Positions 12,081 through 63,087 are shown, numbered from the stretch's first letter. The stretch is DNA of 64,000 bases from Acidimicrobiales bacterium (GCA_035689115.1 DASSMA010000058.1:2573-66572); one strand, 5' to 3'. A program made the numbers and translations. Notes: generated by a model from the sequence alone, not told the origin.

Positions 12081-12200
12081 CGCCGCCGCTGGCGGCCAGG
12101 GGGGTGTGCGGGGCACGGCCCCCCACGCGAAGCCGCCGTGCCGCCTTCGCCGGTCGGCGGCCTGAGCGCCAGGGCGGCCCCGCTAATTCGGCGAGGAACC
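12081..12200 (-). repeat. GC-rich interspersed element, family C, reverse-oriented diverged copy
   Basis: cgccgccgctggcggccaggggggtgtgcggggcacggccccccacgcgaagccgccg... aligns to the reverse complement of C1 (gctggcggcactggggggtgcggggggcgcagccccccgaaaggagccgccg). Confidence 0.55.
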
Positions 12201-12322
12201 TCCGGTACAGAGTCGATGAGAAGTGAATCCTCTTGCGGTTATTCGGTTCTTGCGGTGGGTACGCGGTTCTCCAGGCCCTTCAGACGGAGGGGCGTTGCTA
12301 CGCCCAACCGTTGGAGGCAGCT

Positions 12323-13951
12323 GTGCGGGTGTTGGGGCTGAACGCCGTGTTCCACGATCCGGCCGCGGCCCTGGTCGTCGACGGCGAGATCGTGGCGGCG
12401 GCCGAGGAGGAGCGCTTCACCCGCCGCAAGCACGGGAAGCGGCCGGTGCCGTTCGCCACGTGGGAGCTCCCGGAGCACTCGGCGGCGTGGTGCCTCGAGC
12501 AGGCCGGACTGGACCCGTCGGACGTCGACGCCGTGGCGTACTCCTACGACCCGTGGCTGGCGCCCTCGCCCGGTCCCGACGTCACCGCCGACGGCTGGGA
12601 AGGGTTGCGCACGCTGTACGCCTGGCGGGCTCCGCAGTTCCTGCAGACCGCGCTGCCCGGCCTCGACCCGGCGTCCGTGCGGTTCGTCCCCCACCACGTG
12701 GCCCACGCCGCGTCGGCCCACCTGGCCGCTCCCTTCCCCGACTCGAGCGTCCTCGTGCTCGACGGCCGGGGCGAGACGGCTTCGAGCCTGGCCGGCCGCT
12801 CGGTGGGCGGCGACCTCGAGATCCTGGCCGTCCAGCAGCTCCCCCACTCGCTCGGGCTCCTGTACGAAGAGGTCACCGAGCACCTCGGCTTCCTGCGTTC
12901 GTCCGACGAGTACAAGGTGATGGCCCTGGCCTCCTACGGGGAGGCGACGTTCCTGCCCGAGCTGCGCGAGCTGGTGCGCACGACCGGTGACGGCGGCTTC
13001 GTCGTGGAGCCGATGGACTGGGGCGCCTTCGCCAAGCCGCGCCGGCGCGGGGAGGCGCTCGGGGACGGCCACGCCAACCTGGCGGCCAGCGTGCAGCGCC
13101 GCCTCGAGGAGGTCCTGCTCGACCTGGGCCGCTGGCTCCACGCCCGCACCGGCGACCGCGTCCTCACGATGGCCGGCGGGGTGGCCCTGAATTGCGTGGC
13201 CAACTCCCGCCTCGCCGAGGAGGGCCCGTTCGAGCACGTGTGGGTCCAGCCGGCCGCCGGCGACGCCGGCACGGCGCTGGGCGGCGCCCTCCACGTCGCC
13301 CATGCCGGCGGGGACCGGGTGCGACCGATGCCCGGTGCCGACCTCGGCCGCGAGTTCGGCGACGCCGACCTGGAGGCGTGGCTCACCACTGCCGACGTGG
13401 CGTACGAGCGACCGACCGACGTGGCCGAGGCGGTGGCCGAGGCGCTGGCCGCCGACGCGATCGTCGCCTGGTTCCAGGGCCGGAGCGAGTACGGGCCCCG
13501 TGCCCTCGGGCGCCGCAGCCTCCTCGCCCACCCGGGCCACCGGCGCAACCTCGAGCGTCTCAACGACGTGAAGGGACGCGAGCAGTTCCGGCCGCTGGCG
13601 CCCATGGTGCTCGCCCACCGGGCCGGCGAGGTCTTCGACGGGCCGCTCCCGAGCCCCTACATGCTCTTCACCCAGCGGGTGCGCCCGGAGTGGCGCGACC
13701 GGATCCCGGCCGTCGTCCACGTCGACGGCACAGCCCGCGCGCAGACCGTCGACCCCGCCGGCGAGCCGCTGGTGGGCCGGATGCTCGAGGGCTTCGAGCG
13801 CCGCACCGGCCTGCCGGTCGTCGTCAACACCAGCCTCAACACCGCCGGGCGACCCATGGTCGACGACCCGCGCGACGCCCTCGAGTGCTTCGGCTCGGGG
13901 CCAATCGACCTCCTCGCCCTCGGCCCCTTCACGATCCGGAGGTGCCGATGA
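12323..13951 (+). CDS. carbamoyltransferase (NodU/CmcH family)
   Basis: GTG at 12323 follows GGAGG. The N-terminus VRVLGLNAVFHDPAAALVVDGEIVAAAEEERFTRRKH and the C-terminal region VHVDGTARAQTV...VVVNTSLNTAGRPMV are hallmarks of this family. Confidence 0.9.
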   Translation: MRVLGLNAVFHDPAAALVVDGEIVAAAEEERFTRRKHGKRPVPFATWELPEHSAAWCLEQAGLDPSDVDAVAYSYDPWLAPSPGPDVTADGWEGLRTLYAWRAPQFLQTALPGLDPASVRFVPHHVAHAASAHLAAPFPDSSVLVLDGRGETASSLAGRSVGGDLEILAVQQLPHSLGLLYEEVTEHLGFLRSSDEYKVMALASYGEATFLPELRELVRTTGDGGFVVEPMDWGAFAKPRRRGEALGDGHANLAASVQRRLEEVLLDLGRWLHARTGDRVLTMAGGVALNCVANSRLAEEGPFEHVWVQPAAGDAGTALGGALHVAHAGGDRVRPMPGADLGREFGDADLEAWLTTADVAYERPTDVAEAVAEALAADAIVAWFQGRSEYGPRALGRRSLLAHPGHRRNLERLNDVKGREQFRPLAPMVLAHRAGEVFDGPLPSPYMLFTQRVRPEWRDRIPAVVHVDGTARAQTVDPAGEPLVGRMLEGFERRTGLPVVVNTSLNTAGRPMVDDPRDALECFGSGPIDLLALGPFTIRRCR

Positions 13952-16487: not shown

Positions 16488-17425
16488 ACGTGTTCGTCTG
16501 GCACGTCCACGGCACCTACACCACCGCCCTCGTCCAGGGGCGCCATCGCTACCTGATCCCCGTCCTGCCCGACCGCGGGCCGTACGGCCGAGGGCGGGCG
16601 CGCACCTGGGACTGGCCGGAGTCGGCCGTCGAGGTCACACCGGCCGAAGCGGCCCAGGCGGAGGTCGACCTCGTGATCCTCCAGCGGCCGGGCGAGCTCG
16701 CCCACGTGGCGAGCGCCTGGCTCGGGGGTCGCGTCCCCGGCGTCGACGTGCCGGCCGTGTACCTCGAGCACAACGCCCCCCAGGGGCGGGTGAACGACCT
16801 CCGCCACCCGGCGGCCGACGCGCCGGGCGTCACCGTCGTCCACGTGACGAAGTTCAACGCCCTCTTCTGGGACACCGGAAACTCTCCCGTCAGCGTGATC
16901 GAGCACGGCGTCGTCGACCCCGGCCACCGGTGGACGGGGGAGCTGCCGCAGGCGGTGGCCGTGGTCAACGAGCCGGTGCGACGGGCGCGTGTCACCGGCA
17001 CCGATTTGCTCGGCCCGCTGGCCATCCGCTCCGGCGTCCCCGTCGACCTGTTCGGCATGGCGAGTGAGCCGCTGGGCGGCGTCCACCTGGGCCAGGCGGA
17101 GCTGCACGCCGAGATGCCGAGGCGGCGGGTGTACCTCCATCCGTTCCGGTGGACGTCCCTCGGCCTCACGCTCCTGGAGGCGATGCATCTCGGGATGCCG
17201 GTGGTGGCCCTGGCCACGACGGAGGTGCCGGCGGCGGTGCCGGCCGAGGCCGGCATCGTGTCCAACGACGGCGAGGTGCTGGCCGCCGGCCTCCGCCGGC
17301 TGGCGGCGGACCCGGAGGAGGCCGAGTTGATGGGCAAGGCGGCCCGGGAGGTGGCCCTGGAGCGCTACGGCCTCGGCCGCTTCCTCGACGACTGGGACCG
17401 CGTGTTCGAGGAGGTCGCAGCATGA
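16484..17425 (+). CDS. GT1/GT4-like glycosyltransferase
   Basis: GTGA overlap with the upstream gene. The C-terminal GT-B signature is WTSLGLTLLEAMHLGMPVVALATTEVP. Confidence 0.7.
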   Translation: MNVFVWHVHGTYTTALVQGRHRYLIPVLPDRGPYGRGRARTWDWPESAVEVTPAEAAQAEVDLVILQRPGELAHVASAWLGGRVPGVDVPAVYLEHNAPQGRVNDLRHPAADAPGVTVVHVTKFNALFWDTGNSPVSVIEHGVVDPGHRWTGELPQAVAVVNEPVRRARVTGTDLLGPLAIRSGVPVDLFGMASEPLGGVHLGQAELHAEMPRRRVYLHPFRWTSLGLTLLEAMHLGMPVVALATTEVPAAVPAEAGIVSNDGEVLAAGLRRLAADPEEAELMGKAAREVALERYGLGRFLDDWDRVFEEVAA

Positions 17426-18633
17426 GGGTCGCCATGGTGTCCGAGCACGCCAGCCCCCTGGCCGTGCTCGGCGGGGCCGACGCCGGCGGCCAGAACGTGC
17501 ACGTCGCCTCGCTGGCGGCCGCCATGGCCGCCCAGGGCGCATCGGTGACCGTGCACACCCGGCGGGAAGACGCCCAGCTCCCGAGGCGGGTCGCGCTCAC
17601 CGCCGGCGTCGAGGTCGACCACGTCGACGCCGGTCCGCCGCACCCGATCCCCAAGGACGACCTGCTGCCGCACATGGGCCGGTTCGCCGAGGAGCTCCGC
17701 CGGCAGTGGGTGGCCGACCGGCCCGACATCGTCCACGCCCACTTCTGGATGTCGGCGCTGGCCGCCCTGCAGGCGGCCGACGACCTCGGCATCCCGGTGG
17801 TCGCCACCTTCCACGCCCTCGGGGTGGTGAAGCGCCGGCACCAGGGCCGCCGCGACACGAGCCCGCCCGAGCGCACGGCGGCCGAGGCCATGATCGCCCG
17901 ACGGGCGGTGCACGTGGTGGCCACGTGCACCGACGAGGTGGCCGAGCTGGTGCGCATCGGTGCCGACCCCCGGCGCGTCTCGGTGATCCCCTGCGGCGTC
18001 GACCTTCGGACCTTCACGCCGGCGGGTGCGGCCGAGCTCGGCCGCACCGACCTGCGGCGGGTGGTGGTGGTGAGCAGGCTGGTCGAGCGCAAGGGCATCG
18101 GCAACGTGATCGAGGCGCTGCCGGCCGTGCCTGCGACCGAGCTGGTCGTGGCCGGCGGGCCTCCCGGCGACGACTTCGACGAACGGCCCGAGGTCCGCCG
18201 CCTGCGCCGGCTCGCCGAGCGCCACGGCGTGGCCGACCGCGTGCACCTGCGGGGGCCGGTGGGCCGGAACGATCTCCCGCCGTTGCTGCGGTCGGCCGAC
18301 GTGGTGGCCTGCGTGCCCTGGTACGAGCCGTTCGGCATCGTCCCCCTCGAGGCCATGGCGTGCGGCGTCCCCGTGCTGGCCTCCGAGGTCGGCGGCCTGC
18401 GCGACACCGTGGTCGACGGGGTCACCGGCGTCCACCTGCCGCCGCGGCGGCCCGATCTCATCGGCCAGTCGCTGGCCCGGCTCCTCGCCGATCCCGAGCG
18501 GTGCCGGGCCATCGGTCGGGCCGGCGCCCGCCGGGCGGCGGCCCGCTACGGCTGGTCCACCGTGGCCGCCGCCACGCTCGGGACGTACGCGTCGCTGCTG
18601 GACGCGCCCCGCCTGGTGGGGGCCCGGCGATGA
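17422..18633 (+). CDS. GT4 glycosyltransferase (MshA-like retaining type)
   Basis: ATGA overlap with the upstream gene. Motifs: MRVAMVSEHASPLAVLGGADAGGQNVHV, YEPFGIVPLEAMACGVPVLASEVGGLRDTV. Confidence 0.9.
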   Translation: MRVAMVSEHASPLAVLGGADAGGQNVHVASLAAAMAAQGASVTVHTRREDAQLPRRVALTAGVEVDHVDAGPPHPIPKDDLLPHMGRFAEELRRQWVADRPDIVHAHFWMSALAALQAADDLGIPVVATFHALGVVKRRHQGRRDTSPPERTAAEAMIARRAVHVVATCTDEVAELVRIGADPRRVSVIPCGVDLRTFTPAGAAELGRTDLRRVVVVSRLVERKGIGNVIEALPAVPATELVVAGGPPGDDFDERPEVRRLRRLAERHGVADRVHLRGPVGRNDLPPLLRSADVVACVPWYEPFGIVPLEAMACGVPVLASEVGGLRDTVVDGVTGVHLPPRRPDLIGQSLARLLADPERCRAIGRAGARRAAARYGWSTVAAATLGTYASLLDAPRLVGARR

Positions 18634-21269: not shown

Positions 21270-21273
21270 GTCA

Positions 21274-22257
21274 GTGGTGCGCCGGCAGCCCGTCCTCGTC
21301 GTCCTCCGGGCCCTCGGGCTCGGCGACCTGTGCACGGCCGTCCCCGCCCTGCGCGCCCTCGCCGACGCCTATCCCCGCCATCGCCGGGTGCTCCTCACCA
21401 CCGCCGGCGTCGCCCCCCTCGCCGCCGCCGCCGGCCTGGCCGACGAGGTCGTCACGACCGAGGACCCCCGATCCCGAGTACATAGCGTGCGGAAACCGCA
21501 CGCTATGTACTCGGGGTCGGTGGACGTGGCGGTGAACCTCCACGGCAAGGGCCCGGAGAGCCACCGGGCCCTGCTGGCGGCGGGGCCCCGCCGGCTCATC
21601 GCCTTCGGCACCGCCGGCGTGCCGGGGCCGGCGTGGCGCGCGGACGAGCACGAGGTGCACCGCTGGTGCCGGCTGCTGCGGGAGTCCGGCGTCCCCGCCG
21701 ATCCCGGCCGCCTCGACCTGGACCTGCCGGCGGCGCCCGTTCCGGACGGCGTGGCCGGCTCCACGGTGGTCCACCCCGGTGCCGCCTACCCGGCCAGGCG
21801 CTGGCCGGCGGCCCGGTGGGCGGCCGTGGCCCGGGCCGAGGCGTCCGCCGGGCGCGCCGTCGTCGTCACCGGCGGCGCCTCCGAGGCGGGCCTGGCCCGA
21901 GGCGTCGCCGCCGCCGCCGGCCTGCCGTCGTCCGCCGTCCTGGCCGGCGCCACAGGGGTGGTCGAGCTGGCGGCCGTGGTCGGCGCCGCCGGCCGGGTGG
22001 TGTGCGGCGACACCGGCGTCGCCCACCTGGCCACCGCCCTGCGCCGGCCGTCGGTCGTGCTGTTCGGTCCCGTCCCGCCCTCCTTGTGGGGACCGCCGCC
22101 CGACCGGCCGTGGCACACCGCACTGTGGGCCGGGCGCACCGGCGACCCCTGGGCGGCCAGTGTCGATGGGGGCCTGCTGGAGATCGGCGTCGACGACGTG
22201 CTGGCCGCCCTCGACGGCCTGCCCGCCGCCGAGCCGGTCGCGGCCGCGCCGGCATGA
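21274..22257 (+). CDS. second GT9 glycosyltransferase, carrying an in-frame palindromic insert
   Basis: Motifs: LVVLRALGLGDLCTAVPALRAL, DVAVNLHGKGPESH, VVHPGAAYPARRW, VVCGDTGVAHLATALRRPSVVLFGP. Residues PRSRVHSVRKPHAMYSGS are encoded by repeat A1. Confidence 0.8.
   Translation: MVRRQPVLVVLRALGLGDLCTAVPALRALADAYPRHRRVLLTTAGVAPLAAAAGLADEVVTTEDPRSRVHSVRKPHAMYSGSVDVAVNLHGKGPESHRALLAAGPRRLIAFGTAGVPGPAWRADEHEVHRWCRLLRESGVPADPGRLDLDLPAAPVPDGVAGSTVVHPGAAYPARRWPAARWAAVARAEASAGRAVVVTGGASEAGLARGVAAAAGLPSSAVLAGATGVVELAAVVGAAGRVVCGDTGVAHLATALRRPSVVLFGPVPPSLWGPPPDRPWHTALWAGRTGDPWAASVDGGLLEIGVDDVLAALDGLPAAEPVAAAPA
21468..21520. repeat. palindromic element, family A, copy 1 (inside the GT9 CDS)
   Basis: ccgatcccgagtacatagcgtgcgg-aaa-ccgcacgctatgtactcggggtcgg. 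It has 25 nt arms with one T:G position and a 3 nt loop. Confidence 0.9.
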
Positions 22258-22568: not shown

Positions 22569-22575
22569 ATCTGCG

Positions 22576-26810: not shown

Positions 26811-26891
26811 CGCCCCGAGGGGGGCTGGCCCCCGGCGCGCAGGGCGGGCTGCTCCCTTGTCGCCGCGGCGGGGACCGACGACGATCTCCGC

Positions 26892-31185: not shown

Positions 31186-31478
31186 CGGTCCCTGGGGAGG
31201 TGGTCGCCGGCGACGGCGAGGTGGAGCTGAACCCGGGCCGGGCGCGGGTGACGCTGGTGGTCGAGAACACCGGCGACCGGCCCGTGCAGGTGGGGTCCCA
31301 CTTCCACTTCGCCGACGTCAACGCCGCCCTGGCCTTCGACCGGGCGGCGGCCGACGGCATGCGCCTCGACGTCCCCGCCGGCACCGGCGTCCGCTTCGAG
31401 CCGGGCGTTTCCCGCGAGGTCACCCTCGTCGCCCTGGCCGGCGCCCGCTCCGTTCCCGGCCTCCAGCGGCGGGCCTGA
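31182..31478 (+). CDS. ureB: urease subunit beta
   Basis: GTGA overlap with ureA. Motif: PGEV...ELNPGR...[19 protein letters not shown]. Confidence 0.9.
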
Positions 31479-33181
31479 TGCGGATCGACCGCCGGCGCTA
31501 CGCCGAGCTGTACGGGCCCACGGTGGGCGACCGCGTGCGGCTGGCCGACACCGACCTGTGGATCAGCCCCACCGAGGACCGCACGGCGCCCGCCGGCCCG
31601 GGCGACGAGGTGGTGTTCGGCGGCGGCAAGGTGGTGCGGGAGTCGATGGGCCAGGCCCTCACGTCGGCCGTCGACCTGGTGATCACCAACGTGGTGGTGC
31701 TCGACCACTGGGGCGTGGTGAAGGCCGACGTGGGCGTGAAGGACGGTCGCATCACCGCCGTCGGCAAGGCCGGGAACCCCGACGTCATGGACGGCGTCGC
31801 GCCCGACCTGGTGGTGGGCCCGGAGACGGAGGTGCTGGCGGGGGAGGGGCGCATCCTCACCGCCGGCACCGTCGACTGCCACGTCCACCTCATCTGCCCC
31901 GGCGTGGTGGAGGCGGGCCTCGCCGCCGGCACCACCACGGTGGTCGGCGGCGGCACCGGGCCGGCGGAGGGCACCAAGGCCACCACCGTCACCCCCGGTG
32001 CGTTCTACCTGGCGAGGATGCTCGAGGCCCTCGACCCGTGGCCGGTCAACGTCGCCCTCCTCGGCAAGGGCAACACGGTGTCCCAGGAGGCGCTGGACGC
32101 CCAGGCCCGGGCCGGCGCCGCCGGCTTCAAGCTGCACGAGGACTGGGGCACCACGCCGGCCGCCATCGACGCCTGCCTCACCGCCTGCGACCGCCTCGGC
32201 CTGCAGGTGGCCATCCACACCGACACCCTCAACGAGGCCGGGTTCGTGGGCGACACGCTGGCCGCCATCGCCGGCCGGGGCATCCACGCCTACCACACCG
32301 AGGGTGCCGGCGGCGGCCACGCCCCCGACATCATCACCGTGGCCTCGCACCCCAACGTGCTGCCGTCGTCCACCAACCCGACCCGGCCGCACACGGTCAA
32401 CACCATCGACGAGCACCTCGACATGCTCATGGTGTGCCACCACCTCAACCCGAAGGTGGCCGAGGACGTGGCGTTCGCCGAGAGCCGCATCCGCCCGTCC
32501 ACCATCGCGGCCGAGGACTGGCTGCACGACATGGGCGCCATCTCCATGATCGGGTCCGACTCCCAGGCCATGGGCCGGGTGGGCGAGGTCGTGCTGCGCA
32601 CCTGGCAGACGGCCCACGTGATGAAGGCCCGCCGCGGCCCGCTGCCCGGCGAGCCGGTGGCCGGCGCCGACAACCTGCGGGCCCGCCGCTACGTGGCCAA
32701 GTACACCATCTGCCCGGCCGTGGCCCACGGCCTCGACGGCGAGGTCGGCTCGGTGGAGCCCGGCAAGCTGGCCGACCTGGTGCTGTGGGACCCCGCCTGG
32801 TTCGGCGTCCGCCCGCACGTGGTCGTGAAGGGCGGGATGATCGCCTGGGCGCCGATGGGCGACGCCAACGCGTCCATCCCCACGCCCCAGCCGGTGCTCT
32901 CCCGCCCCATGTTCGGCGCCACCACCGCCGGCGCCCTCTCGGTGTCCTGGGTGGCGCCGGCCGCCCTCGACGCCGGCCTGGGCGACCGCCTGGCCCTGCG
33001 CCGGCGCCTCCTCCCGGTGGGCGACACCCGCGCCGTCGGCAAGGCCCACCTGCCCGAGAACACCGCCACGCCGGCCATCGAGGTCGACCCCTCCACCTTC
33101 ACCGTCCGCATCGACGGCGTCGAGGTCGTCCCCGACCCCGTGGCGGTGCTCCCCATGGCCCAGCGCTATGCCCTCTTCTGA
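31478..33181 (+). CDS. ureC: urease subunit alpha
   Basis: 567 aa. Motifs: [27 protein letters not shown], and a C-terminus PMAQRYALF. Confidence 0.97.
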
Positions 33182-33182: not shown

Positions 33183-33234
33183 CCGTCCCGAGTACATAGC
33201 GTGCGGAATCCGCACCCTATGTACTCGGGAACGG
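33183..33234. repeat. palindromic element, family A, copy 2
   Basis: ccgtcccgagtacatagcgtgcgg-aat-ccgcaccctatgtactcgggaacgg. The arms match copy 1 at 21468-21520. It starts 2 nt after the ureC stop. Confidence 0.9.
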
Positions 33235-33857
33235 CAGTCCTGCTCCTGTTGGGGGACGGGCGGTTCCCGGGCGGCGGGCATGCCCACTCGGGCGGGCTGG
33301 AGGCGGCGGTGGCCGAGGGACGGGTGACGGGCGCCAGCGGCCTGCGGGCCTTCCTGGAGGGGAAGCTCCACACCACCGGGGTCACCGACGCCTGGCTGGC
33401 GGCGGCCGCCTGCGCCGGCGCCGACCCGAGCCTCATGGAGGCGGAGTGCGAGGCCCGCTGCCCGTCGCCGGCGCTGCGGGCGGCCGGCCGGGCGCTCGGC
33501 CGGGGGCTGCGGCGGGCGGCGGCCCGGTCCTGGCCGGAGATCGCCGGCGTCGGCGTCGAGCAGCACCCGGTGGTGCTCGGCCTGGTGGCGCGGGCCGCCG
33601 GCCTGGCGCCGGCCGGCGCCGCCTCGCTGGCGGTGCACGGGATGCTGGCCGGCGGGGCCTCGGCCGCCGTGCGGCTCCTGCCCCTGGACATGGCCGACGC
33701 CATGGCGGTGGTGGCCGGGCTGGCGCCGGAGGCCGACGCGGTGGCGGCAGAGGCGGCGGCCCTTGCCCTGGAGGACGGGCCGGCCCGCTCGGCGCCGGTG
33801 CTGGAGCGGCGGGCCGAGGAGCACGCCCGCTGGGAGGTGCGGCTCTTTGCATCGTGA
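33219..33857 (+). CDS. ureF: urease accessory protein UreF
   Basis: [31 protein letters not shown] matches the usual UreF N-terminal length and motif. A longer in-frame ATG at 33168 overlaps the end of ureC. Confidence 0.85.
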
Positions 33858-38758: not shown

Positions 38759-39552
38759 GCGCGGCGCTCGAGATCAGGGGCCTGTCGGTGGAGTTCGACG
38801 GCTTCCGCGTCCTCGACGGTGTGAACCTGTCGGTCGAGCACGGGGAGCTGCGCTTCCTCATCGGGCCCAACGGCGCCGGCAAGACCACGCTGGTCGACTG
38901 CATCACCGGCCTCACCCACCCCACCGCCGGCGAGGTCGTGTGGGAGGGCCGGTCCCTCGGGCGCATGCCCGAGCACCGCCGGGTCCGCATGGGCATCGGG
39001 CGCAGCTTCCAGACGCCGACGGTCTTCGAGTCGCTCACCGTGCTCGACAACCTCGACCTGGCCGCCTCGTTCCGGCGCCCGCCGCTCACGATGTTCCTGC
39101 GCCGTCGCGGCGTCCCGGCGGCGGTGGCGGCCACCCTCGAGCGCATCGGCCTCGAATCGGTCGCCGGCCGGCCGGCGGGCGCCCTGAGCCACGGCCAGAA
39201 GCAGTGGCTGGAGATCGGGATGCTGCTGGTGCAGGAGCCGCGGCTGCTGCTGCTCGACGAGCCGGTGGCCGGCATGAGCCCCCAGGAGCGCCTCGACACC
39301 GGCGCGCTCCTGAAGGAGCTGGCCGGCGACCACACCGTGCTGGTCATCGAGCACGACATGGCGTTCCTTCGCCGCTTCGCCGACACCGTCACCGTCCTGC
39401 ACCTGGGCCGGGTCGTGTCGGAGGGCACGGTGGAGCACGTCCAGTCCGACCCCGTGGTGCGGGAGGTCTACCTGGGTCGCTCCCGCGACGAGCGCTCCGG
39501 CGCCGCCCCCGCCCTCGAGGCGGCCGCCCTCGGTCTCGGGGAGGAAGCGTGA
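38755..39552 (+). CDS. urtD: urea ABC transporter ATP-binding protein
   Basis: GTGA overlap with urtC. Walker A: GPNGAGKTT. Signature: LSHGQKQWLEI. Walker B: LLLLDEP. Confidence 0.9.
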   Translation: MSAALEIRGLSVEFDGFRVLDGVNLSVEHGELRFLIGPNGAGKTTLVDCITGLTHPTAGEVVWEGRSLGRMPEHRRVRMGIGRSFQTPTVFESLTVLDNLDLAASFRRPPLTMFLRRRGVPAAVAATLERIGLESVAGRPAGALSHGQKQWLEIGMLLVQEPRLLLLDEPVAGMSPQERLDTGALLKELAGDHTVLVIEHDMAFLRRFADTVTVLHLGRVVSEGTVEHVQSDPVVREVYLGRSRDERSGAAPALEAAALGLGEEA

Positions 39553-39670
39553 GAATCGCCTCGCAGGCGGAGCTTGCTCGGCGAGCCGGATCGGCGGCTC
39601 CTTTCGGGGGGCTGCGCCCCCCGCACCCCCCAGTGCCGCCAGCCACGGGGGCCGCCTACGGCGGCGCGGG
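39553..39670 (+). repeat. GC-rich interspersed element, family C, copy 1
   Basis: tcgcctcgcaggcggagcttgctcgg...ggggggctgcgccccccgcaccccccagtgccgccagccacgggggccgcctacggcgg. I estimate roughly 85% identity to the copy at 51299-51393 over the core. Confidence 0.8.
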
Positions 39671-39718
39671 CCGGCCGGCGGCGGTGCCCGTCGGTCTCAG
39701 ATCGCTTGGCGAAGGGCG

Positions 39719-40423
39719 GTGGAAGGCGTGAACCTCGAACTCGACAGCGTGCGGATCGCCTACGGCCGGGCCGAGGTGGTGTTCGGCGTGTCGCTCGACG
39801 TGCCCGACCGCAGCTTCACCTGCCTCATGGGCCGCAACGGGGTGGGCAAGACCACGCTGCTCAACGGGGTGATGGGCATCCTCCCGCTGAAGGCGGGCGC
39901 CGTCCGCCTCGACGGCCGCGACATCACCCGGCTGGGCGCCCCCCAGCGGGCCCGGGCCGGGATCGGCTACGTGCCCCAGGGCCACCAGGTGTTCCCGTAC
40001 CTCACGGCCGCCGAGAACCTGGCCGTCGTCCTGGAGCGCCACGGCCGGCCGGCCAAGGGCGCCCTGGACGACGCCCTCGACCTGTTCCCCGCCCTCCGCC
40101 CCCTGCTCGACCGCCCCGCCGGCCTGCTGTCGGGCGGCCAGGCCCAGCAGCTGGCCATCGCCCGGGCCCTGGTGGCCCGTCCGTCGCTGCTGGTCCTGGA
40201 CGAGCCCACCGAGGGCATCCAGCCGTCGATCATCGTGGAGATCGAGGAGGCCATCGCCGAGCTGCACGCCTCGGGCCTCACCATCCTGCTGGTGGAGCAG
40301 TACGTGGAGTTCGCCCTCCGCCTGGCCCACCGGTTCGCGGTGATGGACGGCGGCATGCTGGTCCACGCCGGGGACACCGCCGGCGTGGACCCCGGGACCC
40401 TGGCCCAGCTTCTCGCCGTGTAG
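39719..40423 (+). CDS. urtE: urea ABC transporter ATP-binding protein
   Basis: Walker A: GRNGVGKTT. Signature: LSGGQAQQLAI. Walker B: LLVLDEP. Candidate starts are GTG at 39719 or GTG at 39728. Confidence 0.9.
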   Translation: MEGVNLELDSVRIAYGRAEVVFGVSLDVPDRSFTCLMGRNGVGKTTLLNGVMGILPLKAGAVRLDGRDITRLGAPQRARAGIGYVPQGHQVFPYLTAAENLAVVLERHGRPAKGALDDALDLFPALRPLLDRPAGLLSGGQAQQLAIARALVARPSLLVLDEPTEGIQPSIIVEIEEAIAELHASGLTILLVEQYVEFALRLAHRFAVMDGGMLVHAGDTAGVDPGTLAQLLAV

Positions 40424-40427
40424 GTTG

Positions 40428-40472
40428 CGCCTCGCAAGCGCCGGCGGCGCTCAGGCCGCCGCCGGCGAGGCG
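40428..40472. terminator. long imperfect GC hairpin between convergent urtE and the YCII gene; its 5' end matches the head of family C
   Basis: cgcctcgc...gcgaggcg outer stem with an internal ccggcggcg/cgccgccgg-like stem. There is no U-tract. The head motif gcgcctcgcaagcg equals the start of elements C1 and C2. Confidence 0.3.
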
Positions 40473-40479
40473 AAACCCC

Positions 40480-41372: not shown

Positions 41373-41417
41373 CTGGCATGCGGATCGCGGGGAATCTGAC
41401 GGCGATCTGCATGCCAG
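41373..41417. promoter_or_regulatory. 16 bp-arm inverted repeat in the divergent intergenic region
   Basis: ctggcatgcggatcgc-n13-gcgatctgcatgccag, with 15 of 16 positions complementary. Confidence 0.4.
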
Positions 41418-49181: not shown

Positions 49182-51296
49182 ATGAACCAGGCGAGCAGGC
49201 CCGCCAACGACATCGAGCGCCACATCCAAGCGCGCTCCCGCTTTGCCTCGCTCCTCGTCCAGGAGCCCGAGTACTTCCAGAAGATCTTCCCGGTCAGCGG
49301 GAGCACCATCTTCGAGCAGCTCACCTGCGTGGGGCTCGAGCCCGACCAGCACGCGCTGTACGCCACCATTGCCGTGAAGCACACGACCGGCTACGGCGGC
49401 GACCTGTGCACCCGCGCCGGCGGCCGCGAGTACGTCCGGTTCTTCGTCGACTGGAACGGCGACGGCGACTTCACCGACGCCGCCGAGGACCTGGGCGTGG
49501 CCAGCGTGGCCGTCCACGACATCCCCGGTCCCAAGCCGCTCGTGTACTCGGTGACCGTGCCCCTCACCCGCGAGCAGGGGCTGTGCTTCCTCGCCCGGCC
49601 GGTGAAGGTGCGGGCCGTCCTCATGTACAACGCCGTCCCGCCGGCCGGGGACCCCGACCCGTTCATCGTCTGGGGCGGGATCCTCGACGTCAACGTGCAG
49701 CCGCGGTCCGGGAGCCTGGTTCTCGGCGACCTGCTGGCGCACGCCCAGGTCAAGCTGGCGCCGGCCTTCGCCGAGCTGGTCGACACCAAGGCGCCGGTGG
49801 CGAAGTCCACGACGCTCACGCCCGCCCAGGTGGTGGCCCTCTACGCCGGCGACGAGACCATGCCCCTGCACCGGTCCCTCGGGCCGCAGCTGGCCACCAT
49901 CGCCCAGGCCATGTCGGCCGACGCCGGCAAGGCGCAGCCGGCCGCCCTGGCGTCGTCGCTCCAGGCCGCCGTCGGCACCGAGGTGGCCGCCAAGCTCGAC
50001 CTGTCCAACGTGATCGGCGCCTATCTCGACCTGGACGGCGACACCAGCTTCGAGGAACTGCACTGCGTGGGGCTGCACCCCGATCTCAGCGCGGTGGTCG
50101 GCGTCCTGGAGATCAAGCGGCCGGCCGGCTACTCGGGCGGCCCGTGCACCTCGGGCAGCCTGGAGTTCGTCAGCTTCTGGGCCGACTGGGACGACAGCGG
50201 GTCGTGGGACCAGTACCTCGGCACCGCCCAGGTCCGCGTCCACGACGAGCAGGTGCCGCCCGGGGGCATCCGCTACGCGGTGTTCCTGCCGGTGAACCTG
50301 GCCCCCCACCGGCGGCCTTGCGGCCAGTCGCACACCGCCCGCATCCGGGCCGTGCTGTCCTGGAACACCCCGCCCGCCTCCACCAACCCCTACGCCGTGC
50401 CCAGGTGGGGCAACCACGTCGAGGCCCTGGTCCAGCTCCCCGTGGGCGAGCCCGAGATCGGGCAGGTGCCGTTCATCAGCGTGGTGGGCGGCATGGCGGT
50501 GGCCGACATCGACGGCGCCGGCCTCGCCACCGGCACCGCCGTGATGGCCGGGTTCCACGCCTCGAACAGCCCGTTCGCCGGCATGGTGTCGATCGCCGGC
50601 CACATCTCCAACCCGCCGGACCTGAGCGCCGGCCAGCCGGCGCTGACGTACGGCCTCAAGTTCCGCAAGGACGGCGACGTGGCGGTGCACGACATCGCCG
50701 ACTCCTTCCAGGTGACCCTGAGCCGCTACTCGGGCTCCGTGTGGACCCAGACCCAGCCGATGCAGATCGCCAACCCGGGCACCCACCGGTTCCCCTACCT
50801 GGAGGACCTCACGCCCAACGGCCCGGCGGGGGACATCACCTTCGTCGAGGGCTTCCTGCTGGGCAAGTGGAAGACCGGCGTCTTGGCCGATGGTCGCTAC
50901 GAGGTGTGGATGGAGGCCGACATCGGGGGCTCGACGGTCGAGAGCAACCACGTGTGGGTCCAACTGGACAACACCGCCCCCAAGGCGGTGCTGGCCCTGA
51001 ACGGCGACCCGTTCACGCCCAAGGGCACCGACATCACCGGGACGTTCGAGGCCACCGACGACCACTTCGGGTCGTGGTCGCTCGGGGTCGTGCCCGGCGG
51101 CTACCCGCACGCCCCGTCGCCGGCCGGCGACAGCGCCCCCAGGGCGGCGGGCACCCCGTTCACGCTGTCGACGAACCTGGCCACGCCGGGGGGCTACGTC
51201 CTCCACCTGCAGGTGACCGACCGCTCGATCGTGAACAGCGGCTCCATCGGCCTCACCACCCCTGCAGACGTGGGCTTCTGCGTCGAGAAGCCCTAG
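49182..51296 (+). CDS. 704-aa uncharacterised protein with two copies of a novel ~130-aa Cys-containing domain and a C-terminal beta-rich (Ig-like?) region
   Basis: High third-position GC. The internal repeat covers aa 44-173 and aa 290-418. There is no signal peptide, and I recognise no family. Confidence 0.7.
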   Translation: MNQASRPANDIERHIQARSRFASLLVQEPEYFQKIFPVSGSTIFEQLTCVGLEPDQHALYATIAVKHTTGYGGDLCTRAGGREYVRFFVDWNGDGDFTDAAEDLGVASVAVHDIPGPKPLVYSVTVPLTREQGLCFLARPVKVRAVLMYNAVPPAGDPDPFIVWGGILDVNVQPRSGSLVLGDLLAHAQVKLAPAFAELVDTKAPVAKSTTLTPAQVVALYAGDETMPLHRSLGPQLATIAQAMSADAGKAQPAALASSLQAAVGTEVAAKLDLSNVIGAYLDLDGDTSFEELHCVGLHPDLSAVVGVLEIKRPAGYSGGPCTSGSLEFVSFWADWDDSGSWDQYLGTAQVRVHDEQVPPGGIRYAVFLPVNLAPHRRPCGQSHTARIRAVLSWNTPPASTNPYAVPRWGNHVEALVQLPVGEPEIGQVPFISVVGGMAVADIDGAGLATGTAVMAGFHASNSPFAGMVSIAGHISNPPDLSAGQPALTYGLKFRKDGDVAVHDIADSFQVTLSRYSGSVWTQTQPMQIANPGTHRFPYLEDLTPNGPAGDITFVEGFLLGKWKTGVLADGRYEVWMEADIGGSTVESNHVWVQLDNTAPKAVLALNGDPFTPKGTDITGTFEATDDHFGSWSLGVVPGGYPHAPSPAGDSAPRAAGTPFTLSTNLATPGGYVLHLQVTDRSIVNSGSIGLTTPADVGFCVEKP

Positions 51297-51298
51297 GG

Positions 51299-51393
51299 TT
51301 TCGCCTCGCAAGCGGATCTTGCTCGGCTGCTTTGTGGGGGGCTGCGCCCCCCACGCCCCCCGTGCCGGCAGCCGTGGGGGGCGCCTCCGGCGC
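51299..51393 (+). repeat. GC-rich interspersed element, family C, copy 2
   Basis: tttcgcctcgcaagcggatcttgctcggctgctttgtggggggctgcgccccccacgccccccgtgccggcagccgtggggggcgcctccggcgcc. It starts 3 nt after the TAG of the 704-aa gene. Confidence 0.8.
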
Positions 51394-51494
51394 CGTTCTG
51401 CGGCCGCCGGCAGCCGATGCACCCGCCGGCGACCGGGCAATGGGGCCCGGTCGTCCGGCGCGAAGAATCGCCGGAAGCTGCCGATACTGAAAGG

Positions 51495-54201: not shown

Positions 54202-54255
54202 GCCTGCCCGATCGGGCAAGGGCGGGCGGTCCCGCCGGCGGTACGCTCGGAGCCG

Positions 54256-56316: not shown

Positions 56317-56368
56317 GGTGGAACCACGAACGGCACTCCACGCGGAGGCCGGAACGTGAAGGAGCAGC

Positions 56369-57546: not shown

Positions 57547-57556
57547 CTTCGCCCGC

Positions 57557-59916: not shown

Positions 59917-59917
59917 G

Positions 59918-60685
59918 ATGCTGCTGGCCGTCGACACCGGCAACACCCAGACCGTGCTCGGCCTCTTCGACGGACCCGAGCTGGCCTCCAGCTGGCGCAT
60001 CGCCACCAACGCCTCCCGCACGGCCGACGAGCACGCCCTCGTGATCACCCAGCTGCTCGACCTCGACGGCTACCCGGCCGAGGAGGTGGTCAGCGGCATC
60101 GCCGTGTCGTCCACCGTCCCGGCCCTCACCGCCACCCTGCGGGCCATGACCGAGCGGTGGTTCGAGGTGCCCACGGTCGTGCTGGAGCCGGGCGTGCGCT
60201 CGGGCGTCGCCATCCTGGCCGACAACCCGAGGGAGGTGGGCGCCGACCGTGTGGCCAACACCGTCGCCGTCCACGCCTTCGTCGAGGGAGCGGCCATCGT
60301 CGTCGACTTCGGCACGTCCACCAACTTCGACGTGGTGTCGGCCAAGGGCGAGTACCTGGGCGGCGCCATCGTCCCCGGCATCGAGATCAGCCTCGACGCC
60401 CTGTTCGGCCGGGCCGCTGCCCTCGGCCGGGTGGAGCTGGTCGAGCCCCGCAGCGTGATCGGCAGGAACACCGTGGAATGCATCCAGTCCGGCGCCCTCT
60501 ACGGCTACACCGAGCTGGTCGACGGCATGTGCCGGCGCATGCGGGCCGAGCTGGGCGAGGCCACCGTGGTGGCCACCGGAGGCCTCAGCGGCCTCATCAC
60601 CCCGCTGTCCACGGCGATCGACCGCCACGAGCCCTGGCTCACCCTCCACGGCCTCCGCCTCGTGTTCGAGAGGAACCAGACGTGA
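59918..60685 (+). CDS. coaX: type III pantothenate kinase
   Basis: Motifs: MLLAVDTGNTQTV, GADRVANTVA, VVDFGTSTNFD. Confidence 0.9.
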   Translation: MLLAVDTGNTQTVLGLFDGPELASSWRIATNASRTADEHALVITQLLDLDGYPAEEVVSGIAVSSTVPALTATLRAMTERWFEVPTVVLEPGVRSGVAILADNPREVGADRVANTVAVHAFVEGAAIVVDFGTSTNFDVVSAKGEYLGGAIVPGIEISLDALFGRAAALGRVELVEPRSVIGRNTVECIQSGALYGYTELVDGMCRRMRAELGEATVVATGGLSGLITPLSTAIDRHEPWLTLHGLRLVFERNQT

Positions 60686-62079
60686 TCCCCTACCGCTTCG
60701 AGCGGGACCGCGACGCCGCCTCGCTCCAGGCCGAGTTCGGCGGGCTGGAGGCCGGGGCCGAGACGGGCGCGACCGCGTCGGTCGCCGGCCGCCTCATGCT
60801 CCGGCGGGTGCAGGGGAAGCTGGCTTTCGGGACGCTCCAGGACTCGTCCGGCCGCGTGCAGCTGTTCGCACGCAAGGGCCGGACCCCCGACTTCGACACG
60901 TTCTGCGCCCTCTCCCTGGGCGACTGGATCGGGGTGCGGGGCGAGGTGTTGAAGACCCGCACGGGCGAGCTGTCGGTGAGCGTGGACGAGTGGGTGCTCC
61001 TGGCCGAGGCCCGCCGCTCCTTCCCCGACAAGTGGCACGGCATCACCGACGTCGACACGCGCTACCGCCAGCGCTACGTCGACCTGTGGGTCACCGACGA
61101 GGCCCGCCGCACGTTCCTGCTCCGCAGCCGCCTCATCAGCCTCCTGCGCCGGTTCCTGGAGGACAGGGGCTTCGTCGAGGTGGAGACGCCGATCTTCCAC
61201 CCGGTGGCCGGCGGGGCGGCGGCCCGGCCCTTCGTCACCCACCACAACGCCCTCGACCTCGACCTCTACCTGCGGATCGCCACCGAGCTGTACCTCAAGC
61301 GGCTGGTGGTGGGCGGCTTCGAGAAGGTGTTCGAGGTGGGCCGCACGTTCCGCAACGAGGGCCTGTCGCCCCGCCACAACCCCGAGTTCACCATGCTCGA
61401 GGTCTACGAGGCCTACGCCGACTACGGCGACATGATGGCCCTCACCGAGGGCCTGGTCGTCCACCTGGCCACCGAGCTGTGCGGGACGACCCACCTCACC
61501 TACGGGGGCCGGGAGCTGGACCTCACCCCGCCGTGGCGGCGGGCCACCCTCACCGAGCTGGTGGAGGAGCACGCCCACGTCCACGTCGACGTCGACATGC
61601 CGGTGGAGGACCTGCGGAAGGTCGCCGAGGACCACGGGATCGAGCCCCAGTCGGGCTGGGGACCGGGGAAGCTCGTCCTGGAGATCTACGAGAAGACCAC
61701 CGAGTCGCAGCTGTGGGGCCCGGTGTTCGTCTGCGACTACCCCCAGGAGGTGTCCCCCCTGGCCCGCGTCCATCGCGAGCGCCCCGGCCTGGTGGAGCGC
61801 TTCGAGGCCATCCTCGCCGGCCGGGAGCTGGCCAACGCCTTCTCCGAGCTGGTCGACCCCGACGACCAGCGCCGGCGCTTCGAGGACCAGGCCCGGGCCA
61901 AGGCGGCCGGCGACGAGGAGGCCATGGACCTCGACGAGGACTTCCTCCGGGCCCTCGACTACGGCTTCCCGCCCACCGGCGGCCTCGGGATCGGCATCGA
62001 CCGCCTGGTGATGCTCCTGGCCGACGCCCACCACATCCGCGACGTCCTCCTCTTCCCCACCCTCCGCCCCGAGCAGTGA
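60682..62079 (+). CDS. lysS: lysine--tRNA ligase (class II)
   Basis: GTGA overlap with coaX. It has an OB-fold N-terminus. Motif 2: FRNEG. Motif 3: GGLGIGIDRLVMLL. Confidence 0.95.
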   Translation: MIPYRFERDRDAASLQAEFGGLEAGAETGATASVAGRLMLRRVQGKLAFGTLQDSSGRVQLFARKGRTPDFDTFCALSLGDWIGVRGEVLKTRTGELSVSVDEWVLLAEARRSFPDKWHGITDVDTRYRQRYVDLWVTDEARRTFLLRSRLISLLRRFLEDRGFVEVETPIFHPVAGGAAARPFVTHHNALDLDLYLRIATELYLKRLVVGGFEKVFEVGRTFRNEGLSPRHNPEFTMLEVYEAYADYGDMMALTEGLVVHLATELCGTTHLTYGGRELDLTPPWRRATLTELVEEHAHVHVDVDMPVEDLRKVAEDHGIEPQSGWGPGKLVLEIYEKTTESQLWGPVFVCDYPQEVSPLARVHRERPGLVERFEAILAGRELANAFSELVDPDDQRRRFEDQARAKAAGDEEAMDLDEDFLRALDYGFPPTGGLGIGIDRLVMLLADAHHIRDVLLFPTLRPEQ

Positions 62080-62084
62080 ACGGA

Positions 62085-62127
62085 CTCGGGACGTTTTCGA
62101 TCGCTATGCGATCGGAACCGTCCCGAG
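62085..62127. repeat. palindromic element, family B, copy 1
   Basis: ctcgggacgttttcgatcgc-tat-gcgatcggaaccgtcccgag. It starts 6 nt after the lysS stop and encodes the last 7 codons and the stop of the DUF559 gene. Confidence 0.85.
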
Positions 62128-63021
62128 AACGCGGCGGACCTGGGCGGCGACCCGGTCGGGGCGCCGGACGACGTCGGCCCAGGTGAACCGCAGGACGGTC
62201 CAGCCGAGGGCCACGAGGGCGTTCTGCCGCTCGAGATCGTGCTGGAACGCCTGGGGCGAGGCATGGGCGGCGTGGCCGTCGACCTCCAGGGCCAGGCGCC
62301 GGTCGGGGTAGGCGAAGTCCACCCGGGCGACGAAGCGTCCGGCCTCGCGCACCTCGTGCTGGAAGGCGGCCGGCGGGAGTCGGTGGACCCGCATGAGGCG
62401 GGCCATGCGGGGCTCGAGCAGGGAGTCCGGCCGGTCGGCGCCGAGCGCCCGCCGGTCGAGGACGCCCCGCAGCACGCCGGCGCCCGAGCGCCCCGGCCCG
62501 GCCACCTCTTCGAGTGCCTGCTCCACGCCGGCGACCGTCAGCAGGCGCGCCTCCAGCGCCCGCTCGAGGGCGTCCTCCACCGCGCCGGCCGGCAGGACGG
62601 CCCCCAGGTCGACCAGCGCGCGCATCGGCGTGGTCGTCGGGACCCCCCTGCGGCGCACCGCCCGGGCGGCGCCGAGGTCGCCGGACCGGTGCAGCACGAC
62701 GCCGTGGAGCCGGGGCCGGCGGGGGCGCGGCACGGACACCTCGACGGTGTCGTCGTCCAGCAGGCCCCACAGGCGCGCCGCCGAGCGGTGGGACGCCACC
62801 GCTCCCTGGCCGGCGCCGAGCACGGCGGCCAGCACCCGCTGCTCCCAGGTGACCGGTGCGCCGGCCACCCGGTACACCGAGGGGAACACGGCGACGACCC
62901 GGCCGGCGCCCAGCCAGCGGCCGACGGTCGGCTCGCTCACGCCGGCCGCGTGCAGCTGCTCCCTCGTCACCAGCCCGTGCTGGCCGGCGCCGAGCCCGTC
63001 CAGCCATGTGATCGGGCCCAC
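62104..63021 (-). CDS. AbiEi_4-like N-terminal domain plus DUF559 (Vsr-endonuclease-fold) protein
   Basis: GTG at 63021 follows GAGGAGGGG. N-terminal region: GLVTREQLHAAGVSEPTVGRWLGAGR. C-terminal DUF559-like region: VDFAYPDRRLALEVDGHAAHASPQAFQHDLERQNALVALGWTVLRFTW. Confidence 0.8.
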   Translation of the reverse strand: MGPITWLDGLGAGQHGLVTREQLHAAGVSEPTVGRWLGAGRVVAVFPSVYRVAGAPVTWEQRVLAAVLGAGQGAVASHRSAARLWGLLDDDTVEVSVPRPRRPRLHGVVLHRSGDLGAARAVRRRGVPTTTPMRALVDLGAVLPAGAVEDALERALEARLLTVAGVEQALEEVAGPGRSGAGVLRGVLDRRALGADRPDSLLEPRMARLMRVHRLPPAAFQHEVREAGRFVARVDFAYPDRRLALEVDGHAAHASPQAFQHDLERQNALVALGWTVLRFTWADVVRRPDRVAAQVRRVLGTVPIA

Positions 63022-63042
63022 GGCCCCTCCTCGTTGACGCGG

Positions 63043-63087
63043 TCTGGGGACGTTTTCGATCGCTCTGCGATCGGAAACGTCCCGAGA
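63043..63087. repeat. palindromic element, family B, copy 2
   Basis: tctggggacgttttcgatcgc-tct-gcgatcggaaacgtcccgaga. It lies 22 nt upstream of the DUF559 start codon. Confidence 0.85.

Follow-up and report, generated by a model that had tools for sequence, protein, structure and literature searches.

Three short-repeat families at gene boundaries in a compact, G+C-rich Acidimicrobiia-like genome, and their probable independence

Why should three families of short repeats with no evident kinship all lie at the edges of genes? The question is raised by a stretch of 64,000 nucleotides (nt) from an Acidimicrobiales bacterium (GCA_035689115.1, DASSMA010000058.1:2573-66572; hereafter the window, meaning this whole stretch), in which repeat families A, B, and C adjoin the boundaries of open reading frames (ORFs). 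An initial annotation had read them as one combined phenomenon, in which colonising elements were selected or targeted to respect translational coupling. The answer that we consider the likelier one is that three independent things have been grouped together in a compact, 75% G+C Acidimicrobiia-like genome: a dispersed hairpin mosaic (C), a hairpin pair that brackets a DUF559 gene (B), and a low-copy palindrome (A), with their contact to gene boundaries coming mainly from compactness and purifying selection.

The starting point is the chance baseline. G+C content across the window was 71-79%, and the genome, at approximately 75% G+C, is related to Acidimicrobiia; the closest protein relatives came from metagenome-assembled genomes (MAGs) of Acidimicrobiales and Acidimicrobiia, at about 54-71% identity. 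Genes were called by our own log-odds scheme based on G+C at third codon positions (GC3), and 42 of them were checked against Pfam. By these calls the coding fraction of the window was 0.94, and 19 of 60 same-strand junctions were 4-nt overlaps, so that the frequent gene overlaps proposed in the initial annotation are real. Because the genome is about 94% coding with frequent 4-nt overlaps, no repeat could avoid contact with a gene boundary, and position at an ORF boundary is by itself uninformative at this density; in 94%-coding genomes, the impression that repeats respect gene boundaries is largely forced. Short G+C-rich hairpins directly after stop codons were also present at 26811-26840 (CGCCCCGAGGGGGGCTGGCCCCCGG) and 54202-54230 (GCCTGCCCGATCGGGCAAGG), and stop-proximal hairpins without a U-tract seem common in this genome, which raises the baseline for any claim about hairpins at gene ends. 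Families A and B were the sole long, high-identity repeats in the window, and family C was recognised first on inspection of intergenic sequence and afterwards in alignments. The boundary positions described for the three families hold, apart from one C fragment (12080-12152) that adjoins no gene end. We propose that this contact would follow mainly from 94% coding density together with purifying selection, rather than from one shared mechanism.

Kinship among the families had been argued from short shared cores, namely CCCGAG and CTCGGG in the outer arms of A and B, and GATCGC and GCGATC in the inner arms of B and of a further palindrome at 41373. These hexamers are frequent: CCCGAG, CTCGGG, GATCGC, and GCGATC occur 70, 72, 29, and 25 times in the window, respectively, and the probability that two random 22-nt arms have a hexamer in common is 0.33. 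We therefore rejected both kinships as sharing at chance level. The third palindrome (41373-41417; single copy, 17-nt arms, -38.8 kcal/mol) lies in a 297-nt spacer between a divergent DUF6069 gene on the minus strand and a gene for a DnaA_C-like helix-turn-helix (HTH) protein, and is probably a local operator or hairpin with no relation to B. Further on, past the DnaA_C-like HTH gene, is a pair encoding an extracytoplasmic function (ECF) sigma factor and a zf-HC2 anti-sigma factor.

Family B proved to be the bracket of a gene unit and not a dispersed repeat. Its two copies, at 62081-62128 and 63040-63087, are identical at 44 of 48 nt and enclose a minus-strand gene (62104-63021) for a protein of 305 amino acids (aa), identical to database protein P0121, in which Pfam recognised an AbiEi_4 winged helix-turn-helix (wHTH) and DUF559/MTES_1575, a Vsr-like PD-(D/E)xK endonuclease. 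Copy 1, the 3′ hairpin of the unit, lies between the DUF559 gene and the convergent lysS (class II lysyl-tRNA synthetase; 60682-62079, plus strand; Pfam tRNA-synt_2 and tRNA_anti-codon). Its CTCGGG arm begins 5 nt past the lysS stop codon, and its 5′ arm, read on the minus strand, encodes LGTVPIA, with the TAG stop codon in the loop. Copy 2, in the 5′ leader, begins 66 nt and ends 18 nt before the GTG start, upstream of a GAGGAGG ribosome-binding site and 27 nt downstream of the stop codon of a polyprenyl synthase gene (63114-63998, minus strand; Pfam polyprenyl_synt), which is located upstream of the unit on the same strand. Thus, the two placements first described for B were accurate, with one copy encoding the last codons and stop of the DUF559 gene next to the lysS end and the other in the leader of that gene.

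Colonisation by a mobile repeat, in contrast, is not supported as their explanation. Homologues of the DUF559 protein are approximately 305 aa in length and 54-71% identical to it, and they end in VLGSLQAA, VLRTLRTA, or similar sequences, each residue of which has its counterpart in VLGTVPIA in the alignment; the codons inside copy 1 are thus native, and the idea that LGTVPIA was added by the element was rejected. We then compared the DNA around eight homologues with that of the window, for a total of nine Acidimicrobiales lineages. The leader palindrome and the AbiEi_4 domain were present in all nine, and six (the window, L072, L075, L078, L084, and L085) had an unambiguous 5′ leader palindrome, about 48 nt long, together with a near-identical 3′ copy, with the stop codon in most of the six located in the 3′ hairpin loop, as CGCATAGCG. 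Partial pairs were found in L074 and L077, and L079 had the 5′ hairpin only. Copies from a single locus match at 88-92% of positions (44/48 in the window, 45/49 in L072, and 44/50 in L078), whereas between lineages only the outer TTCTCnGG...CCnGAGAA and a central GCATA are kept. Moreover, 14 of 20 base pairs showed double compensatory changes across 11 B-type hairpins; paired cells made up 84.9% of this alignment versus 66.6% in shuffles, none of 500 of which reached the observed value, and the covariation score was 0.51, versus at most 0.15 when partners were slid. The hairpins are conserved and co-evolve within the gene unit, and no solo B-type hairpin was found elsewhere in the window or in the homologue loci.

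The unit itself occupies at least six neighbourhoods across the lineages read: lysS/polyprenyl synthase (window), aconitase/CHAT, birA/aminotransferase IV, UGSC/HhH-GPD, Ham1/alanine racemase, and SEC-C/NuoF. The birA/aminotransferase IV context was that of L075/L076 and L078, while L077 had birA upstream, L074 had a birA 3′-end motif, and the L072 unit carried approximately 25 nt of a birA 3′ end. We envisage that the hairpins could delimit a gene unit whose parts relocate together, and that they might also be binding sites of the unit's own HTH-nuclease. Candidate functions of the bracket are an AbiEi-like HTH operator, protective 5′/3′ stem-loops, or recombination ends of a moving unit.

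It is possible, if somewhat unlikely, that the B hairpins are nothing more than local signals of common types, with a terminator for the gene upstream, an operator, and a bidirectional 3′ terminator placed around a resident, vertically inherited DUF559 gene that has nothing mobile about it. The gene order birA-DUF559-aminotransferase IV common to four lineages is what such residence would produce, and the placement of copy 2 shortly after the polyprenyl synthase stop and of copy 1 between convergent genes is where local signals would be expected. AbiEi proteins bind inverted repeats, and AbiEi-type HTH proteins autoregulate through them (PMC3985639, PMC7319586), a precedent that also suits a local operator. 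Nevertheless, independent signals should not stay 88-92% identical within a locus while about half diverged between lineages, and the number of neighbourhoods, together with the piece of birA brought along by the L072 unit, speaks for relocation. In addition, a terminator with a U-tract was not found, and a scan of 61900-63300 for intrinsic terminators and sigma-70 promoters returned nothing.

Comparison with known systems sharpened the description of this bracket. The likeness to AbiEi autoregulation (PMC3985639, PMC7319586) lies in the N-terminal AbiEi_4 wHTH and in the long inverted repeat in the gene's own 5′ leader; the differences are that there is no AbiEii toxin partner, that the C-terminus is a Vsr-like nuclease, and that the 20-bp-arm hairpin is duplicated at the gene's own stop codon. 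As in a cassette of an integron, an imperfect palindrome directly adjoins the ORF 3′ end and the unit occurs in varied contexts, but integrase, attI, and cassette array are missing, the R′/R″ core sites (GTTRRRY) of attC are not visible by eye, and the second copy stands upstream of the gene. The closest formal parallel is the REPtron, which consists of a RAYT gene flanked by repetitive extragenic palindromic (REP) sequences; REPs and bacterial interspersed mosaic elements (BIMEs) occur with RAYT transposases in Enterobacteria and Pseudomonas. The B gene is likewise a nuclease gene bracketed by two hairpin copies. Its enzyme, however, combines a Vsr-like PD-(D/E)xK fold with a wHTH, in place of a Y1 transposase; the two hairpins face the same way, as direct copies, and solo copies were not seen.

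Further sequence features were noted around the unit. In most lineages read, the DUF559 5′ hairpin is preceded at a distance of 15-25 nt by a C-rich motif, CCCTTCCCCC (L072 2610-2640; L074 1-30; L075 4895-4930; upstream of DUF559 in L077 and L078; window 63100-63125, minus strand), which is degenerate in L084. The motif is preceded by (G/C)CATACTGA in L072, L074, L075, L077, and L078, and its TGA is the birA stop codon in L075, while the corresponding TAG is the polyprenyl synthase stop codon in the window. A scan of Joint Genome Institute (JGI) metagenome contigs for B gave 39 matches, all of them chance matches in coding sequence except one at L050 170-194. On that contig (75% G+C), a short hairpin, ACGTTTTCGATCGCTGTGCGATCGG, equals the inner 25 nt of the window B bar one loop base and lacks the outer arms.

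Family C is of another kind. Its full copy at 39553-39700 (plus strand; site W39558) consists of a 30-nt module 1 (TCGCCTCGCAGGCGGAGCTTGCTCGGCGAG, 39556-39585) followed by genome-specific G/C hairpins, and is flanked by genes for ABC ATPases, a livG-like gene (38755-39552) and a livF-like gene (beginning at 39719 or 39728 and ending at 40423). In a second full copy (51297-51420, plus strand), module 1 starts 4 nt past the TAG of a gene for a GEVED-domain protein (49182-51296); over 89 nt the two copies are about 80% identical, and they have module 1 in common besides. Additionally, a C-related short hairpin (40424-40479, plus strand) has the 5′ 13-18 nt of module 1 (GTTGCGCCTCGCAAGCG) and lies 1-4 nt past the livF stop codon between convergent genes, and a diverged fragment of modules 2-3 (12080-12152, minus strand; 76% identity over 74 nt, E 1e-7) is situated in a 403-nt divergent intergenic region with no ORF end adjoining. 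The copies had been described as one that forms an ORF bridging two genes and others that start just past stop codons. This description fits the copies at 39553, 51297, and 40424, the latter two lying 1-4 nt past stops, and fails for the reverse-oriented fragment, which is off gene ends.

To establish how far C extends, we scanned one genome per species with the exact pattern GCCTCGCARGCGGNNCTTGCTCGGC and recovered module 1 at 17 loci in 13 Acidimicrobiia-type MAGs (JAUJNQ01, JALZKD01, JBKHXC01, JADDQT01, CAVSZO01, JALYYN01, CAVQTY01, JBIOUO01, DASSOZ01, JAHFUS01, DATASA01, JALYGF01, and JALZJC01). Bases flanking the scan pattern were conserved too (TCGCCTCGCAAGCGGAGCTTGCTCGGCGAG, 0-1 mismatch). 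The module, TCGCC-TC-GCAAGC-GGA-GCTTGC-TC-GGCGA, consists of two stems, with a constant UC/UC internal loop between them and GGA as the terminal loop, and is almost invariant in at least 14 species (the 13 MAGs and the window). Where it varies, as in L009, L016, and L017, the stems are altered through compensatory changes, with loops and architecture kept, and a recurrent A-to-G stem change in W39558, L009, and L013 leaves a G-U pair on the sense strand only. The conservation of a 30-nt hairpin across this many species points to a conserved trans-acting factor, be it a transposase, an RNase, or an RNA-binding protein.

The hairpins downstream of module 1 behave differently. They differ between genomes and are alike at non-orthologous loci of one genome, with within-genome scores for the downstream modules of 95, 75, and 68 versus a between-genome 95th percentile of 45. 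This likeness of the downstream modules within genomes and not between them points to copying of C within genomes. Each MAG held one or two exact copies of module 1; none occurred in 484 kb of other loci, and there were no inverted doublets. A partial or tandem extra module 1 lies directly upstream of the canonical copy at L002 1150-1216 and L009 4203-4270, and in the L009 extra copy both stems are changed while the UC/UC internal loop and GGA loop are kept. No inverted copy of the C 5′ end was present within 400 nt, and a miniature inverted-repeat transposable element (MITE) bounded by terminal inverted repeats was rejected, since no inverted 5′ end lies downstream.

The placement of C relative to genes is non-random and polar, next to stop codons. 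With the orthologous L004 and L017 taken once, there were 18 independent sites in the 13 MAGs and the window, at 15 of which module 1 is located in sense orientation downstream of the stop codon of a same-strand gene (p = 0.004), so that an orientation bias, one of the checks that had been proposed for the families, is present for C. At 12 of the 18, module 1 lies 0-7 nt past the stop codon. The upstream genes are unrelated; ten were confirmed by Pfam (MetE, MCM, GNAT, CorA, L27, GrpE, cytochrome c, MoxR-like, UppS, and Prs), and those in the window encode livG and the GEVED-domain protein. Several sites are in or after housekeeping genes (rplN-rplX, grpE-dnaJ, after rpmA, and after prs). The exceptions to this placement were L007, which is antisense within an operon, L005, upstream of a tRNA-Thr gene, and L006, upstream of a divergent gene. 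In the antisense copies of L007 (1899-2071) and L017 (6423-6452), the complement of module 1 ends in GCGAGGCGAAAC, 3-4 nt before an ATG, and its GAGG could be the Shine-Dalgarno sequence of the gene that follows.

Can C be crossed by ribosomes? A bridge ORF (39549-39731, plus strand) spans the copy between livG and livF, with a GTGA overlap at the livG stop and another at the livF start candidate 39728; its frame is open for 263 codons anyway, which is usual at 75% G+C. Such relay ORFs, which run from the upstream stop to the downstream start, were present at 6 of 11 operon-internal C sites (W39558, L004/L017, L011, L013, L014, and L007) versus 4 of 76 control spacers (50-340 nt) drawn from the same data set (p = 1.5e-4). 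A length-phase null is the fairer comparison because the element is nearly without stop codons. By this measure, six of the seven sites that can be bridged in a single phase were in the bridging phase (p approximately 0.007), or five of seven (p approximately 0.045) if livF starts at 39719, where our caller had first placed it. A spacer of about 20 nt already abolishes termination-reinitiation (PMC10666635), so that coupling across a C spacer of 100-200 nt could come about only via a translated relay ORF. These counts are suggestive of selection for relay ORFs across C. A conserved peptide encoded by C was rejected, as the copies lie at distances from the stop codon that differ modulo 3 and, between them, make use of every frame.

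We propose that C is a dispersed, non-coding hairpin mosaic, comparable to REP/BIME or MIRU (mycobacterial interspersed repetitive unit) elements, that has spread within genomes. It would act at the RNA level as a 3′-end or intercistronic hairpin, with module 1 as the putative recognition site of a conserved host or mobilising factor, and copies might survive only where expression is undisturbed, partly by leaving a stop-free relay ORF between cistrons.

Could C instead be no selfish element at all and belong to the host, as a cis-regulatory RNA motif? We regard this as unlikely, though it accounts for a good deal. Under this explanation, C would be a 3′-untranslated or intercistronic hairpin bound by a protein or RNase, acting as stabiliser, processing site, or factor-dependent terminator, and recruited repeatedly because it is useful. 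The invariance of 30 nt in 13 species-level MAGs and the window, the strong strand bias and closeness to stops, the stem change that pairs on the sense strand only, the low copy density with none in the other loci, and the sites in housekeeping operons are all as such a motif would have them. However, the genes that it would serve have nothing in common, the genome-specific subfamilies at non-orthologous loci imply copying, and the truncated and tandem fragments of L002 and L009, along with the antisense operon copy of L007, resemble repeat debris. There is also no Rfam family for it. Moreover, a regulatory role is compatible with mobility, as REP elements are both mobile and functional.

The resemblance of C to REP/BIME elements is considerable. 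It is short, forms an imperfect hairpin in which an internal mismatch is conserved, and is arranged in hairpin mosaics, at gene 3′ ends and between operon cistrons, and REPs are reportedly often near stop codons. It differs in having a variable (G)TTTC or purine-rich linker in place of a GTAG-type 5′ tetranucleotide, in not occurring in inverted doublets, in its low apparent copy density, and in a module 1 that is multi-species rather than species-specific; no RAYT was present among the 42 window proteins scanned with Pfam, and families A and B depart from REPs as near-perfect palindromes with 20-nt arms. The other point of reference is the MIRU, which is said to carry small ORFs overlapping the flanking stop and start codons. 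In the passage of PMC2734929 that cites Supply et al. 1997, MIRUs are described as intergenic in actinobacterial operons and are proposed to affect differential translation within polycistronic operons. C is similarly actinobacterial and intergenic within operons, and by our start calls it would have stop/start-overlapping ORFs at the operon-internal sites given above. MIRUs form tandem arrays that vary in the number of their 40-100-bp units, in contrast to C, which is a single mosaic and has tandem partials in L002 and L009 only; the two show no similarity in sequence, and the relay ORF frames of C vary by copy. Unlike MITEs, C is without terminal inverted repeats. Neither C nor A hairpins are followed by T runs, and the resulting lack of a U-tract sets both apart from intrinsic terminators, none of which was present around B either (61900-63300).

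Family A is a perfect palindrome of 45-57 nt with two copies in the window that are 95% identical over 44 nt (E 1e-12). Copy 1, a near-perfect palindrome (21465-21523, core 21473-21515, repeat match 21472-21520) with the sequence CCCGAGTACATAGCGTGCGG AAA CCGCACGCTATGTACTCGGG, lies in frame in a gene of the GT9 (heptosyltransferase) family (21274-22257, plus strand; Pfam PF01075, E 2e-25, and frame plot) and encodes SRVHSVRKPHAMYSG. As RNA it folds into a 27-bp hairpin (-54.9 kcal/mol, z -11). The GT9 reading frame and high GC3 continue on both sides of it, with the Pfam match intact. In an alignment of 18 GT9 sequences, the position is a variable loop of 12-13 residues where the window has 19, DPRSRVHSVRKPHAMYSGS, corresponding to 66 nt of DNA in the window versus 42 nt in the closest homologue. 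In an AlphaFold2 (AF2) model of the protein (mean predicted local distance difference test score, pLDDT, of 90), residues 67-78 are the sole internal low-confidence segment (below 50) and fall in the element-encoded loop between strands 58-61 and 83-88; by this model, copy 1 sits in a predicted disordered surface loop.

Copy 2 (33186-33234, core 33187-33229; -42.4 kcal/mol as RNA) lies in the spacer between ureC (urease alpha subunit; 31478-33181, plus strand; Pfam Urease_alpha and Amidohydro_1) and ureF (33219-33857, plus strand; Pfam UreF), 4 nt past the ureC stop codon, and is open in the same reading frame as copy 1. Of the start candidates for ureF (ATG 33168, GTG 33201, and ATG 33219), the last is in the 3′ arm of the palindrome and in frame with UreF, and we infer that copy 2 probably supplies it; searches of NCBIfam and PDB to fix the UreF start gave no matches. 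The reported contacts of A with genes, in frame within one and providing a start codon to another, are thus upheld, given this start. They are also unsurprising, because on either strand the element leaves two of three frames open, and the probability that both copies fall in an open frame is approximately 0.44. These open frames may have allowed A to be tolerated as an in-frame insertion, in the manner of Rickettsia palindromic elements (RPEs), in the GT9 surface loop and at the ureC-ureF junction. No statement on targeting of A is possible, because there are only two copies.

The flanks of copy 1 (GAT...GTC) and copy 2 (CGT...AAC) showed no target-site duplication. Searches for further A copies returned none in viral contigs, JGI metagenome contigs, or, by BLAST, plasmids; the plasmid search gave nothing for C either, and the viral-contig scans for A and B yielded only chance 17-mer matches in coding DNA, none palindromic. 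A protein-database search with the concatenated A-encoded peptides gave no candidates and missed the window's own GT9 protein too, so it was uninformative. The contig of the closest GT9 relative (L081) held no A, B, or C copies, and its loop DNA is unrelated to A, so that it revealed no clean empty site. RPEs (Ogata et al. 2000) are summarised in PMC10969869. Like them, A is palindromic, in frame in a coding sequence, compatible with the fold as a surface loop, and in the same frame in both copies, with the GT9 protein otherwise intact. However, RPEs are about 100-150 bp in multi-copy families with a conserved peptide, whereas A is 45-57 nt with two copies known, and its net gain of only 6-8 codons relative to GT9 homologues means that a clean insertion is not demonstrable. 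It differs from MITEs in being palindromic throughout and in having flanks without duplication.

Two observations were made beside these genes. On L081 (2090-10024), the GT9 relative adjoins a tyrosine integrase, a HicAB pair, a Tn3-family transposase, and a resolvase, a mobile-element hotspot without counterpart in the window. On the minus strand at 31646-31905, antisense in the start of ureC and just past the ureB-ureC junction, there is a sub-threshold Rfam match to 5_ureB_sRNA (31.9 bits, gathering score 40; E 1e-4), which probably reflects conserved urease coding sequence.

Several observations weigh against reading the families as a within-genome mosaic, a relocating unit, and a tolerated palindrome. 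For C, the relay ORFs are spread over all three frames of the element, and their enrichment comes partly from its lack of stops; the ORF at 39549-39731 counts only with the livF start at 39728, not 39719, and starts are those of our own GC3 caller. No transposase was present among the 42 window proteins scanned with Pfam, and no mobilising enzyme was found. At the DNA level, A and B are each represented by two copies, in the window only. In the B hairpins, G-U pairs and A-C mismatches are about equally frequent, and because of this equality an RNA-level function is indistinguishable from a DNA-level one. Finally, the birA-adjacent position of the DUF559 gene is common to four lineages, and the distribution of the gene may be largely vertical with few rearrangements, rather than a product of active mobility.

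A bolder interpretation would see two undescribed systems here, which strikes us as improbable. The first would be a hairpin-DUF559-hairpin autonomous mobile cassette, with a wHTH/Vsr-fold endonuclease that recognises its own palindromes, similar to a REPtron but with another class of enzyme, and the second a class-wide C element with a hairpin read by a conserved factor and relay ORFs that keep coupling across a 100-200-nt insertion. As for a single phenomenon, in which three mobile families colonised the genome under targeting or selection to keep frames and translational coupling at junctions, both A copies are in open frame, B copy 1 ends a coding sequence without disruption, a stop/start-overlapping ORF crosses C at 39549-39731 with such ORFs enriched at C sites, and 4-nt overlaps are frequent, but it is very unlikely, given that B is inherited within its gene unit with a coding tail homologous to those of its relatives, that A falls in open frames with a chance of about 0.44, that the inter-family hexamers are chance, that spacers above about 20 nt abolish termination-reinitiation (PMC10666635), that relay ORF frames are not conserved, and that the C fragment at 12080 is off any gene boundary. 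What survives of respect for translational coupling concerns C only, in its polar, stop-adjacent placement and relay ORFs; B is native to the DUF559 unit, A has just two copies, and no link between the families is supported.

Acidimicrobiia are abundant in soil and water and poorly studied, and we found no description of their intergenic repeats: our literature search returned no paper on such repeats in this class, and there is no Rfam model. The proposal that the repeats are undescribed for this lineage may hold to that extent, although the kinds are known elsewhere (REP/BIME, MIRU, and RPE); family C and the DUF559 bracket appear to be undescribed elements of already known kinds. C offers a ready marker for operon structure, 3′-end formation, and strain typing. 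The matched B pair gives a testable handle on the very large DUF559 family, as either a selfish nuclease cassette or an autoregulated gene, and a mobile cassette, if true, would explain an abundant actinobacterial DUF559 gene in varied neighbourhoods. Family A illustrates how codons and start codons that come from an element can become part of real proteins (GT9 and, with a probable start, UreF).

A tRNA scan of the window found none, and Rfam 15 at the gathering threshold gave no structured-RNA family in the window; at E <= 1 there was nothing relevant, only a spurious mir-345 match on the A hairpin. A minus-strand gene at 10817-11308 encodes an actinobacterial Holin-X domain (PF07332, E 3e-30), with neighbours that had no Pfam match and no further phage genes seen nearby. 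The minus-strand coding sequence at 9786-10820 holds a 36-nt direct repeat (92%) at 10413-10448 and 10467-10502, and a perfect 24-nt palindrome lies at 18025-18048, within the coding sequence at 17422-18633.

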